NCBI GenBank assembly: GCA_964476825.1
Contig: CAYZCD010000002.1
Coordinates: 1 to 42,059 of the forward strand
Source of the DNA: an uncultured archaeon
GTDB taxonomy: Archaea > Aenigmatarchaeota > Aenigmatarchaeia > JACPZZ01
DNA length: 42,059 bases
Direction: 5' to 3'
Shown here: positions 1,168 through 10,384 of the stretch, one piece after another
How positions within the stretch are numbered: position 1 is the stretch's first letter
How the letters are laid out: each line of letters starts with the position of its first letter
Program-made: the position numbers and the translations under genes
The notes under the pieces: model-generated
The model's database searches: none
Told to the model about the DNA's origin: nothing
What the model saw: the letters and a program-made list of their open reading frames with translations, nothing else

Positions 1168-1443
1168 ATGGCGGAAAAAAACTTACTGAAGAAGATAGAC
1201 AGGATAAATGAAAGAAACCGCAGGGTAGAAGCTGATAAATCATGGGAAACAAGCAAGACGAGGCGTTTTATCATAACCGTGTCCACATACGTAACAATCA
1301 GCATTTTTCTTTTTTACATAAAAGCCCCGGATCCGTTTATCGCCTCAATTGTTCCGACCGTTGGTTATTTACTGTCCACGCTGACGATGCCGATTTTAAA
1401 AAGAATGTGGCTGGATAAAATCTATAAAAGAGCACCAAGGTGA
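1168..1443 (+). CDS. small membrane protein, unknown function
   Basis: The track ORF 1153..1443 starts at TTG; the first ATG in frame is at 1168 (MAEKN). Basic N-terminus followed by two hydrophobic segments. Confidence 0.4.
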   Translation: MAEKNLLKKIDRINERNRRVEADKSWETSKTRRFIITVSTYVTISIFLFYIKAPDPFIASIVPTVGYLLSTLTMPILKRMWLDKIYKRAPR

Positions 1444-1447
1444 TAAT

Positions 1448-2077
1448 TTGGACAAAAAACAAACCTTAAAAGAAATTCGAGAACGGGTAAAATCCAATTG
1501 TGCCAACGATTCCACCGGCCACGACTGGAACCACATAAATCGCGTAAGACAGAATGCGATTAAGATTGCTAAAACAGAAGGCGGAGATATTTTCATAATT
1601 GAATTGGCTGCGTTGCTTCATGATGTGGAAGACTGGAAAAGCACAAACGCGGGGAGCGGCCTTGTAAATAAATTATTAAAAGATGTCAATATTGACGAAG
1701 AAAGTTCGAAAAAAATCAACGATATAATCTCAAAAATATCTTTCAAAGGTGTTAACCACGACGATAAAATGGATACAGTTGAAGGTAAAATAGTACAGGA
1801 CGCGGACAGGTTAGACGCACTGGGTGCCACGGGTATAATCAGAAGCGTATTGTACGGCGCGTCGAATGGTATTCCTCTTTATGATCCTTTGATAAAGCCA
1901 GACCCAAACGCATCGGCGGAAAAGATAAAAAGATCCACAACAATAAACCATTTCTACGAGAAACTGCTTTTGTTAAAAGACAGGATGAACACAGCCACGG
2001 CGAAACGAATGGCGGTTGAAAAGCACGCTTTTATGGAGCTTTTCCTAAAGCAGTTTTACAGGGAGTGGGAAACGTGA
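1448..2077 (+). CDS. HD-domain phosphohydrolase
   Basis: HDWNHINRV, LLHDVED and DADRLDALG motifs typical of the HD superfamily. TTG start in the track. Confidence 0.75.
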   Translation: MDKKQTLKEIRERVKSNCANDSTGHDWNHINRVRQNAIKIAKTEGGDIFIIELAALLHDVEDWKSTNAGSGLVNKLLKDVNIDEESSKKINDIISKISFKGVNHDDKMDTVEGKIVQDADRLDALGATGIIRSVLYGASNGIPLYDPLIKPDPNASAEKIKRSTTINHFYEKLLLLKDRMNTATAKRMAVEKHAFMELFLKQFYREWET

Positions 2078-8216: not shown

Positions 8217-8256
8217 GCTATTAATATTTCTGAACAAAACAGATTCTAAGTAAACT

Positions 8257-8288
8257 GAATCATACCGATACAAAATACGGTATGATTT
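8257..8288. repeat. tRNA-associated hairpin family, copy H2
   Basis: GAATCATACCG / CGGTATGATTT gives 10 bp plus one G.T pair. Loop is ATACAAAATA. 5' flank AACT, and the 3' flank TAGTT abuts tRNA-Leu directly. A collapsed CTGAAC..GATTCTAAGT relic lies at 8230-8251. Confidence 0.8.
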
Positions 8289-8324
8289 TAGTTGCGGGGG
8301 TAGCCAAGCCCGGTCAAGGAACCA

Positions 8325-8348
8325 GAAGCATATCTGCTGATATGCTTC
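8325..8348. repeat. hairpin family copy H3, inside the tRNA-Leu D-loop intron
   Basis: GAAGCATAT / ATATGCTTC is 9 bp perfect, with loop CTGCTG. Enclosed by AACC (8320-8323) and GGTT (8354-8357). Confidence 0.7.
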
Positions 8349-8400
8349 AGTCGGTTCGACTTGAGTGATGAGGTTAAGCAAACTGGCGCAACAACAAACT

Positions 8401-8421
8401 GACACATACATGGTATGTGTC
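8401..8421. repeat. hairpin family copy H4, inside the tRNA-Leu D-loop intron
   Basis: CT-GACACATAC / GTATGTGTC-TGGTT is 9 bp with loop ATG. The flanks mirror the family CTGA...T(A/G)GTT pattern. Confidence 0.6.
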
Positions 8422-8638
8422 TGGTTGCAATGCGTCTGTCTGAACAACCAATGACTAGAGGCGTCAGACTCAAGTAAGCTTTCCCAGAAAGAAAGCCTAA
8501 GCAAAGAAGGGAAATCTGATCTCCTAGCGAGTTCGTCGGTTCAAATCCGGCCCCCCGCACTTTCTTTTCACTAAAAAAGCCATATTTAAACCTTGCAGAA
8601 ACTCATTATTCATACAAACTTTTTGAAAACGTGGTTTC

Positions 8639-9724
8639 ATGAAAGCGTACTTAGGTTATTCGGTTGTCGGCGTGTTCGCGTTTGACCCAGCCGGGACGCT
8701 ATTGGACAAGGAGTTTTTCAAGAAAGACGCGAAGCAGATTTCCATCAGATTAAACAAGGCCAAAAGCGAATTCCTGGACGAAGAGCTTGCATTGCTTAGA
8801 AGGCTCACAAAAAAAGGCGCAAACGAATTTTTCGGGGCATACCCAAAATCCGGCGAGTTCCGGATCAACCGCGATTCCGGGTCACTGGGCGAAAACAATG
8901 CAAAAGGCGTTTTTCGTGAAATTGCGCTGAGGGACAAGTGGGTTGTTTCACAGGCTGAACTAAACAAAATACTATCTGGCGTCGGGGCTGAGAGTTCCAA
9001 AGAAGAACTGCGCAACGTCGACAAGGACAAAATAGGAATGCGGGTTGTAGGCATGATAGACGAATTGAACAGGAACATAAACACGCTTTCAGAACATTTA
9101 CGCGAATGGTACGGGCTGTACTTCCCTGAAATTAACGGGCTGCTGAGGGACAATGAAAAATTCTCGGTTTTTGTGGCGGATAAAACACTGCGCGGAAATT
9201 TTGAACGCGACGGGAGAAAATTGGATATAGAAACCGCGGGTATGGAATTCGATGAGAATGATCTGGAAAGCGTAAAACAGGCGGGCCTCACACTAAAGCA
9301 AATGTATTTTGAGCGCAAGAACCTGGAAAATTATCTTGAAATATTGGGCAAAAAAATAATGCCGAATACGTCCGCTGTTGCCGGTGCGCTTCTCGCTTTC
9401 CGCCTAGTGTCGCAGGCAGGCGGGCTGGATAAACTTGTAAAACTGCCGTCGTCCACAATACAATTACTGGGTGCCGAAAAAGCTTTATTCAGGTTCTTAA
9501 AAAAGCAGGGCAAAGCCCCCAAACACGGCATAATTTTCTACCATCCGGCTGTAATTTCAGCGCCGATACCAATACGCGGAAAAATAGCACGCATCGTTGC
9601 GGCTAAAATAACCATGGCCGCCAGGGTCGATTTCTATTCCGGCAACGACAAAAGCGCAGCTATGAAAGAAGAGCTGAACCGCGTGGTAAACAACGCGTTA
9701 ACTCATTTCAAGGAAAGCGGTTGA
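8639..9724 (+). CDS. nop5: Nop5 (Nop56/58) C/D box sRNP core protein
   Basis: NOP-domain signature GAEKALFRFLK...PKHGIIFYHP. Sits immediately upstream of fibrillarin, as in most archaea. Confidence 0.9.
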   Translation: MKAYLGYSVVGVFAFDPAGTLLDKEFFKKDAKQISIRLNKAKSEFLDEELALLRRLTKKGANEFFGAYPKSGEFRINRDSGSLGENNAKGVFREIALRDKWVVSQAELNKILSGVGAESSKEELRNVDKDKIGMRVVGMIDELNRNINTLSEHLREWYGLYFPEINGLLRDNEKFSVFVADKTLRGNFERDGRKLDIETAGMEFDENDLESVKQAGLTLKQMYFERKNLENYLEILGKKIMPNTSAVAGALLAFRLVSQAGGLDKLVKLPSSTIQLLGAEKALFRFLKKQGKAPKHGIIFYHPAVISAPIPIRGKIARIVAAKITMAARVDFYSGNDKSAAMKEELNRVVNNALTHFKESG

Positions 9725-9727
9725 TCC

Positions 9728-10384
9728 ATGAAGTTGAAGGAAATTTTTCCGGGAGTCTTCCGTATAGACGGCCAGCTGGCTACAAAAAACCTGGTTAGTG
9801 GAAGGTCGTATTCAGAAAAAATAATAAACGTCAACGGCGAAGAATACAGAACCTGGAACCCGGAAAAATCCAAGGCCGCGGCCGCGATTTCGAAGGGAAT
9901 AAAAAATTTTCCGATAAACAAAGGCTCAAAAATCCTATACCTCGGAATAGCGCAAGGACAGACAGCTTCGTATTTTTCCGACATAATAGGCAACGACGGA
10001 ATAATTTATGGAGTTGAATTTTCAGCGCGTGCTGTTAGCGATCTTGTAATCGCATGCGGAAAAAGGGAAAATATAGTCTCCATAAAAGCAGACGCGCGCA
10101 AGCCCGAGGATTATTCATGGGTCGAAAAAGTCGACGTAGTCTATGAAGACGTCGCGGATTCCGAGCAGGCGGCGATATTGCTAAGGAATGTTGACGCTTT
10201 CCTAAAGAAAAACGGATATGCGATGATTGCGATAAAAGCAAGAAGCATAGACGTCACAAAAAACCCGTCTAAAATTTTCCAGGAATCCCTGTCCATGATA
10301 AAGGAAAAAATGGAAATATTGGACTATGTGACGCTGGACCCGTTTGAAGTCGATCACGCATTTATAGTGTGCAGGCCAAGGTGA
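9728..10384 (+). CDS. flpA: fibrillarin-like rRNA/tRNA 2'-O-methyltransferase
   Basis: GSKILYLGIAQGQTASYFSDIIG is the SAM-binding motif. Length and gene order with nop5 fit. Confidence 0.9.
   Translation: MKLKEIFPGVFRIDGQLATKNLVSGRSYSEKIINVNGEEYRTWNPEKSKAAAAISKGIKNFPINKGSKILYLGIAQGQTASYFSDIIGNDGIIYGVEFSARAVSDLVIACGKRENIVSIKADARKPEDYSWVEKVDVVYEDVADSEQAAILLRNVDAFLKKNGYAMIAIKARSIDVTKNPSKIFQESLSMIKEKMEILDYVTLDPFEVDHAFIVCRPR

Follow-up and report, generated by a model that had tools for sequence, protein, structure and literature searches.

The window analysed here, 42,059 nt long, is contig C2 of G000, a 0.8-Mb genome in 53 contigs (83% complete) from the Aenigmatarchaeota, a DPANN lineage of archaea. 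It contains a tRNA-Leu(CAA) gene interrupted by two introns, and the first of these introns carries two hairpins, H3 and H4, that belong to a palindromic repeat family also found in the leaders of tRNA genes. As discussed below, the intron appears to be older than its hairpins, which probably entered it late, as passengers. Comparisons were made with six further genomes of the genus (G001-G006, seven with G000) and with G007, from a second genus of the same taxonomic family; the genomes compared are incomplete metagenome-assembled genomes (MAGs), 65-91% complete. Proteins of groundwater MAGs that bear the label Candidatus Aenigmatarchaeota match Nop5 of G000 at 73-91% identity.

A tRNA-Leu(CAA) gene with two introns

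The gene is missed by both ARAGORN and the Rfam tRNA models, and was found by a search for the acceptor and T-arm as a 266-nt unit at 8294-8559. In-silico removal of the introns joins exons of 24, 16 and 46 nt into an 86-nt class II tRNA-Leu. The parts of the gene, and the two genes that follow it, are listed here with the basis of each assignment in brackets.

8294-8317, plus strand: exon 1, tRNA positions 1-21, 3' end GGTCAA (sequence)
8318-8458, plus strand: intron 1, 141 nt, in the D-loop between positions 21 and 22 (predicted bulge-helix-bulge)
8459-8474, plus strand: exon 2, positions 22-37, anticodon CAA at 8471-8473 (sequence)
8475-8513, plus strand: intron 2, 39 nt, at the canonical 37/38 site, no copy of the repeat family (sequence)
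8514-8559, plus strand: exon 3, positions 38-73 (sequence; acceptor and T-arm search)
8639-9724, plus strand: nop5, directly downstream of the tRNA gene (Pfam Nop, 1e-49)
9728-10384, plus strand: fibrillarin, after nop5 (Pfam Fibrillarin, 1e-79)

Intron 1 is bounded by a predicted splice frame in which a 4-bp helix, GGTC 8312-8315 / GACT 8453-8456 (GGUC/GACU in the RNA), lies between two 3-nt bulges on opposite strands, AAG 8316-8318 and AGA 8457-8459, each cut after its second base in the predicted register. One register serves all seven genes of the genus and gives the mature sequence GGTCAA^AGGCG (GGTTAA^AGGCG in G006; the caret marks the junction). The 5' strand of the helix is GGUC (GGUU in G006), and its partner differs among the orthologs, being GACU, GAUC or GACA. 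The spliced D-arm is that of the intronless 86-nt tRNA-Leu(CAG) of G003, reading GGTCAAAGGCG. Because all orthologs give one mature D-loop matching this intronless gene, the splice sites, though predicted, are well constrained. Another register, GUCA/UGAC, was dropped, since the mature D-loops that it yields differ between species, and GGUC/GACU was preferred. Splicing endonuclease is encoded in G000 by a single gene (219 aa, with N-terminal and catalytic domains), and its cleavage of intron 1 is a prediction. Intron 2 is absent from the tRNA-Leu(CAA) genes of G001 and G004.

Palindromic repeats and the growth of intron 1

A first-pass annotation of the window had placed H3 (8325-8348) and H4 (8401-8421) inside intron 1, and both are real hairpins located as it described. 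H3 consists of GAAGCATATC (8325-8334), the loop TGCT and GATATGCTTC (8339-8348), with 10 perfect pairs, one beyond those originally listed, and is enclosed by an outer helix, GAACC 8319-8323 / GGTTC 8353-8357. H4 is a perfect 9-bp stem formed by GACACATAC (8401-8409) and GTATGTGTC (8413-8421) around the loop ATG, flanked by AACT (8397-8400) and T-GGTT (8422-8426). Bare hairpins of 9-10 bp are not rare, 141 being present over ten contigs and 80 in shuffled sequence, more than half the real number, so the weight rests on membership of a family. The arm GAAGCAT is indeed common to H3 and to leaders, as had been claimed: inverted pairs lie upstream of tRNA-Thr (3170/3200), tRNA-Val-TAC (35391/35421) and tRNA-Ala (35583/35613). 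The word occurs 13 times in the window against 5.6 expected, a count reached in 0 of 100 shuffles.

Family membership was assessed with a covariance model, R1, seeded with 28 long-form copies from elsewhere in G000 (H3 and H4 were not among the seeds) and run over the window as a filter-free scan. R1 matches H3 over its full length (8316-8356, minus strand, 35.7 bits, E 5.7e-8) and also matches H4 (8393-8430, plus strand, 27.1 bits, E 1.9e-5). The proposed link between intron content and the tRNA-flanking hairpins thus holds, since one repeat family accounts for both. The family has a long form with the consensus TAAACT-GAAGCATACCG-loop-CGGTATGCTTC-T-AGTT and a unit of about 44 nt, and a short form, AACT(A)GACACATAC-nnn-GTATGTGTC(T)AGTT, with the same foot. 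Copies of the form AACT-GAAGCAT...ATGCTTC-T-AGTT show its attributes: the AACT/AGTT foot, one bulged base near that foot and an arm capped by GA...TC. H4 has the foot, AACT-GACAC...GTGTC-T-GGTT (AACT/AGTT with one bulged base). The foot of H3, AACC-A-GAAGC...GCTTC-AGTC, is degenerate and replaced by the outer helix GAACC/GGTTC; it was still counted as a family foot. Near-identical copies of H4 lie elsewhere in G000 (C8:17515 and C25:2526), and no second copy of H3, as a possible donor, was found within 3 mismatches in the seven genomes of the genus. The copies at the locus are as follows; A1 is an alignment of six tRNA-Leu(CAA) genes, with G006 outside it and compared separately.

8318-8358, minus strand: H3 unit, 41 nt, GGAACC-A-GAAGCATATC-TGCT-GATATGCTTC-AGTC-GGTTCG, at the predicted exon 1/intron junction (A1, R1)
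8393-8430, plus strand: H4, short-form copy AACT-GACACATAC-ATG-GTATGTGTC-T-GGTT, core 8401-8421 (R1)
8383-8438, plus strand: older short-form half-arms around H4, CTGGCGCA at 8383-8390 and TGCGTCTG at 8431-8438 (match to the G004 hairpin)
8249-8297, plus strand: leader copy of tRNA-Leu(CAA), CTGA-ATCATACCG / CGGTATGAT-TTTAGTT, ending 2 nt before the gene (R1, 54.2 bits, E 2e-13)

The orthologous introns form a graded series from 37 to 141 nt in the six relatives and G000, which is the comparison that the first-pass annotation had proposed.

G001, G003 and G006: intron 1 of 37-38 nt, no family hairpin (R1 silent)
G004: intron 1 of about 68 nt, one short-form hairpin CTGACGCATACatgGTATGCGTCTG, a weak match of 17 bits
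G002 and G005: intron 1 of 100 nt, H4 between the half-arms CTGGCGCA...TGCGTCTG
G000: intron 1 of 141 nt, H4 and the half-arms, plus H3

The two half-arms together match the single hairpin of G004, and H4 itself scores 27.1 bits in G005 and 27.5 bits in G002 with R1. H3 is in A1 a clean 41-nt block, GGAACC...GGTTCG, present only in G000 and absent from all six orthologs. Its boundaries are unambiguous, with no room for a shift, and no target-site duplication accompanies H3, the filled site of G000 and the empty site of G005 giving GGTCAA^ACTTGAG. G005 is the sister of G000 (Nop5 90.5% identical, support for the pair 100/100, tRNA-Leu(CAG) 100% identical), and since this sister lacks exactly those 41 nt, H3 arrived on the G000 branch. 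Three orthologs carry the core intron at the same site with no family hairpin, which argues that the intron came first; as read from these alignments, intron 1 predates its hairpins and the hairpins are dispensable. We regard family membership, the order of insertion, the exact boundaries and the conservation of the core as established by the sequences compared.

The family is abundant in G000 and narrow in distribution. Of the roughly 60 loci that R1 finds in the 0.8-Mb genome, 20 belong to tRNA leaders, 5 to introns and 5 to trailers; a further 4 fall within or next to the RNase P RNA gene, and about 30 lie elsewhere. The five intron copies sit in four tRNAs, Leu-CAA (two), Leu-CAG, a Ser and Trp, with weaker look-alikes in the Cys intron, at another position of the Ser gene and in one further tRNA. 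A check of the other introns, another of the proposed tests, left about 15 of roughly 20 intron-bearing tRNA genes without any copy. Copies occur in both orientations and also nested one in another, and their arms are near-identical between unlinked loci, a mark of copying rather than of local selection for structure. All seven other genomes of the taxonomic family contain the repeat (7-85 R1 hits each), and 53 other genomes of the class gave a single hit. In leaders, the R1 model ends 1-4 nt before the tRNA +1 in about 15 genes. The leader of tRNA-Leu(CAA) has no family copy in G001 or G004 and three nested copies in G005 (L002 1340-1476), and the tRNA-Trp intron of G006 (L053) has two nested copies, each level in the loop of the next; the nesting at both places suggests that hairpin loops are a preferred landing site.

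Several other stable-RNA genes bear on the range of the family. The RNase P RNA gene of G000 (C6:21069-21611, minus strand; locus L044 1501-2043) is 543 nt long against a 288-position model and scores 75.6 bits, just below the gathering score. It has four large insertions, two of which visibly hold family hairpins in the alignment, and R1 places four copies in or beside the gene, so the repeat colonises a ribozyme gene as well as tRNA genes. The tRNA-Leu(CAA) gene of G006 (L005 ~1424-1520, minus strand) has an extra T-loop intron, found in no other ortholog, with the short-form hairpin TTAGACTCATACcatGTATGAGTCAGTC. A second tRNA-Leu, the one with anticodon CAG (G000 C1:6080-6216; loci L031-L036), has a 51-nt D-loop intron at the same 21/22 site. 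A single family hairpin makes up nearly all of this intron in G000, G005 and G002; G006 has it in inverted orientation, G004 has an unrelated hairpin at the same site, and G003 lacks the intron. None of five registers gives a canonical bulge-helix-bulge in the G000 gene, where the motif is relaxed. There is also a second palindrome family, TTGAGAAAAYC / ATTAGAAAACC, scattered in G000 (C6:2100, C9:1777, C30:7917, C35:6328). In G006, on C5 (L085 2815-2875, 2904-3257), two of its palindromes stand directly upstream of an IS200-type Y1 transposase gene.

A candidate methylation guide in the intron core

What remains of intron 1 without its hairpins is conserved. The invariant intron columns in the six genes of A1 are CTTGAGTG, GA and ATGA, all of which are also present in G006, and together they outline the following elements.

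8359-8367, plus strand: antisense 'guide' ACTTGAGTG, complement of the anticodon loop (alignment invariants, folds)
8368-8371, plus strand: D'-like box AUGA, of which only GA 8370-8371 is invariant (A1)
8372-8449, plus strand: kink-turn C-stem, GGTT 8372-8375 / AACC 8446-8449, with all variable material at its tip (covariation, folds)
8450-8454, plus strand: AAU bulge and GA, a C'-like bulged strand overlapping the splice strand GACT 8453-8456 (ATGA invariant)

Over its 8 nt, the stretch ACTTGAGT (8359-8366) is perfectly complementary to A31-G37 and the adjoining first base of intron 2 (8468-8475), and the minimum-energy folds of all orthologs show it base-paired to the anticodon loop. C34 (8471) pairs with G8363, the fifth base upstream of AUGA (N+5). 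The C-stem covaries among the orthologs, as GGTT/AACC, GGCG/CGCC, GGCGA/TCGCC and GTTTGC/GCAAAC. Kink-turns consist of a non-bulged GA, a C-stem, a 3-nt bulge and a further GA, and at the sequence level the intron has all of these in order: GA 8370-8371, the stem, AAU and GA 8453-8454. It is from established knowledge of kink-turns and box C/D RNAs that we read this GA-stem-NAU-GA layout as a kink-turn. On balance, we think that the core of intron 1 acts as a self-targeting guide for 2'-O-methylation of C34, though this judgement is held with less assurance than the late arrival of the hairpins.

Such a layout is not confined to tRNA-Leu(CAA). A scan of the introns of all intron-bearing G000 tRNAs for complements of the anticodon loop returned Leu-CAA, Lys-UUU and Trp, and Met(CAU) was spotted by eye. 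All four introns have guide, NNGA, stem and NAU-GA, with nucleotide 34 at N+5. The three further candidate guides lie in canonical introns of G000:

C17:14995-15107: tRNA-Met CAU
C19:3368-3528, minus strand: tRNA-Lys UUU
C29:9071-9236, minus strand: tRNA-Trp

The module is kept in relatives, in four genomes for Trp, four for Met and seven for Lys, the last including G007 of the second genus. Genes for two likely partners, nop5 and fibrillarin, adjoin the tRNA-Leu(CAA) gene, which lies just upstream of the pair in all seven genomes of the genus; this linkage may be either functional or accidental.

Other assignments of the core were tried. No Rfam family matches the intron, the best being snoR127 with E = 3. 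A classical box C/D sRNA, with GTGATGA 8365-8371 as box C and CTGA at 8399 or 8441 as box D, was rejected: the spacings are wrong, the guides vary between species, CTGA is the repeat's own foot, and the conserved bases fit a single kink-turn instead.

Intron-borne and separate guides to position 34 have been described in other archaea. In Haloferax volcanii, Cm34 of tRNA-Trp is guided by the intron and Cm34 of tRNA-Met by an sRNA, and tRNA-Met guides have been called "always exonic" for haloarchaea and Pyrococcus (PMC2584109). The intronic tRNA-Met candidate of G000 contrasts with that rule. A C/D guide to C34 of tRNA-Leu(CAA) has been predicted in Pyrococcus (PMC7668247), and the tRNA-Met intron of Nanoarchaeum equitans contains a C/D-like RNA (PMC3491384).

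Probable passenger repeats, alternative readings and known systems

The explanation that we favour begins with an older, functional D-loop intron of about 37 nt, made up of the splice frame GGUC/GACU with its 3-nt bulges and the self-targeting guide. The antisense stretch CUUGAGUG and a single kink-turn (GA, stem, NAU-GA) would recruit L7Ae, Nop5 and fibrillarin, and C34 would be 2'-O-methylated before splicing. Such an intron would tolerate extra RNA at only two spots, the spacer between 5' splice site and guide and the tip of the kink-turn stem. H3 and H4 would then be lineage-specific copies of the palindromic repeat, added successively; folding on themselves and leaving the frame intact, they would be discarded with the intron, passengers rather than signals. 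The repeats would have spread by a DNA-level copy process that prefers hairpin loops and the spacers of stable-RNA genes. Taken as a whole, late passenger repeats in an older guide-bearing intron seem to us the probable account; its neutrality, the methylation and the means of spread are what we infer.

The placement of the hairpins is consistent with this. Free sequence in the minimal intron amounts to 1-2 bases between splice site and guide and the 4-nt loop that caps the kink-turn stem. The former place holds H3, the latter H4 with its older shell. At the same stem tip the Lys intron has lineage-specific insertions, and in G004 a family copy precedes its guide. The energy needed to force the splice frame is 6.9 kcal/mol in G000, inside the range of the orthologs (5.6-8.0), so H3 makes the frame no harder to form. 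Selection on a compact functional intron would thus explain the exact placement, including that of H3 at the splice junction, and no splice-directed mechanism of insertion is needed.

That said, a number of observations weigh against this explanation. H3 coincides exactly with the predicted 5' splice junction, and its outer helix takes the position expected for the inner helix of the splice motif; a family hairpin holds the same place after the 5' splice site of tRNA-Trp in four species; the only inner helix of tRNA-Leu(CAG) is a family hairpin; and the spacing of leader copies before +1 is tighter than simple junk predicts. The Nop5 single-gene tree resolves only the pair of G000 and G005, so the order of the older insertions rests on sequence similarity. 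No cognate mobilising enzyme was identified in G000 or in the relatives searched for Y1: Y1_Tnp has no match in G000, G001, G002, G003, G005 or G007 (genomes 65-91% complete). Y1 transposase genes are present only in G004 (C8, L084 2605-3075) and G006; they are mutually 79% identical and are flanked by hairpins of their own, AGCCCTATCA and CCCCGCACT, unrelated to the R1 family. A RAYT-like mobiliser was rejected on these grounds, occurring in two relatives only and with other hairpins at its ends. As for the guide, classical archaeal guides carry two kink-turns, and the two box pairs C/D and C'/D' are not both found here, the minimal 37-nt intron having one recognisable kink-turn. The kink-turn GA 8453-8454 is also part of the splice helix, so the intron could adopt its guide and splice structures only in turn.

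The first four of these observations favour a different role, in which the hairpins would do work as RNA: in introns as the inner helix of a relaxed bulge-helix-bulge, in leaders as a landmark, aiding an alpha-type endonuclease or RNase P. In the frame-constrained fold the outer helix GAACC/GGTTC of H3 begins right after the 5' bulge, G000 has the single 219-aa endonuclease unit already described, and DPANN endonucleases with extra loops accompany disrupted tRNA genes (PMC5829648). The first-pass annotation had raised a similar possibility, a module for processing or recognition that serves leaders and introns alike, which is hard to reconcile with hairpins that come and go between close relatives in the intron (none in G001, G003 and G006, and no H3 in any ortholog) and in the leader (G001 and G004). 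Other points against it are the variable orientation and the nesting of the copies, their presence in trailers, within the RNase P RNA gene and at some 30 other places, the majority of G000 introns, which have none, and the near-identical arms at unlinked loci that indicate copying. An inner-helix role in tRNA-Leu(CAG) must also contend with the unrelated hairpin of G004, the inverted one of G006 and the intronless gene of G003. We regard a working role as unlikely, though it retains some weight.

A very improbable variant makes the repeats RNA-level travellers, hairpin RNAs ligated into cleaved tRNA precursors and copied back into DNA. It is prompted by the position of H3 at the predicted endonuclease cut, by leader copies that abut the RNase P cut and by the location of nearly all tolerated sites in transcribed and processed stretches of stable RNAs. 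If true, travel of this kind would be a new way for archaeal introns to arise or grow, and the tRNA-Leu(CAG) intron would be one created by it.

There is similarly little to recommend an action of the palindromes on DNA, as binding sites or promoter elements for tRNA transcription, with the intron copies as strays. The spacing to the tRNA +1 is fixed, A/T-rich loops lie ~21-30 nt upstream, and perfect palindromy suits dimeric DNA binders. Yet orthologous leaders lack the hairpin, hairpin-less tRNA genes have ordinary TATA-like boxes, some hairpin-bearing genes have an AT-rich box further upstream, and as promoters the copies in introns, in trailers and in the RNase P RNA gene would make no sense. 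A DNA-level promoter role is unlikely for the intron copies.

Least credible of all is birth of the D-loop intron itself by insertion of an element into an intact tRNA-Leu gene, also suggested in the first-pass annotation: the Leu(CAG) intron that is nearly one family hairpin, with the direct repeat AGGC (4 nt, which may be D-stem sequence read twice) on either side, and the intronless gene of G003 speak for it, but the Leu(CAA) intron stands at the same site with no family copy in three genomes, its sister version in G005 lacks the 41-nt H3 block, the repeat bears no relation to its conserved core, and the Leu(CAG) intron of G004 holds an unrelated hairpin. For Leu(CAA) we reject it, a hairpin-free ancestral intron being the parsimonious reading of the orthologs; at tRNA-Leu(CAG) an intron may have been gained through an element.

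Late passenger repeats in an older intron would make the locus an example of how an archaeal tRNA intron grows, from 37 to ~68, 100 and 141 nt, with filled and empty sites kept in sister genomes, as a small palindrome lodges again and again at the two positions dispensable to a functional intron. Long, odd tRNA introns of DPANN archaea appear to be part old functional core and part recent parasitic filler, a mixture that bears on the debate whether disrupted tRNA genes are ancient or derived. If the guide is real, a D-loop intron could direct methylation of the anticodon ~100 nt downstream, and intron-borne guides would extend beyond tRNA-Trp and beyond the canonical intron site. The locus is also a natural series of substrates for gauging the tolerance of a minimal alpha-type splicing endonuclease. 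In the literature searched, no paper was found on palindromic repeats inside archaeal tRNA introns or on tRNA introns of Aenigmatarchaeota; the stepwise growth of the intron and the putative guide inside a D-loop intron are new here.

Among known mobile sequences, the family most resembles the bacterial REP/BIME elements (REPINs) that are moved by RAYT Y1 transposases (PMC3733652, PMC3184786). Both are short imperfect palindromes in tens of copies, located in non-coding spacers, in both orientations, clustered or nested, and restricted to a narrow lineage. The R1 family differs in its archaeal host, in its foot, AACT(A)G...C(T)AGTT with a bulged base and no GTAG or CGTC tag, and in having copies inside tRNA introns and the RNase P RNA gene; no Y1 gene is flanked by its copies in G000 or its seven relatives. 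Like miniature inverted-repeat transposable elements, the repeats are small, non-autonomous, multi-copy and intergenic; unlike them, they show no target-site duplication at H3, no terminal inverted repeats beyond the hairpin and no parent insertion sequence.

The gain of tRNA introns in Thermoproteales and Caldiarchaeum, described as 'intron transposition' (PMC4090602; PMC3293823), is alike in that related sequence occurs in introns of different tRNAs, present or absent among close relatives, and in that mobile DNA has been offered as the explanation. Whole introns or a recombinase-bearing element are shared in those cases, whereas here only the hairpin module is, the splice frame and core being older and unrelated.

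The closest counterparts of the putative guide are the intronic C/D guide of euryarchaeal pre-tRNA-Trp and the tRNA-Met intron of N. equitans, which likewise have an antisense stretch and a kink-turn box pair directed at C34 of their own tRNA. Guide pairing and splice motif are mutually exclusive in the pre-tRNA-Trp type as they are here, so methylation must precede splicing. The target, tRNA-Leu(CAA), is different, and its guide would lie in a D-loop intron, far from the anticodon. It would use one kink-turn, with the guide followed by D'-like box, stem and C'-like box, and, in contrast to the pre-tRNA-Trp guides, repeats have moved into its 5' spacer and the tip of its stem.

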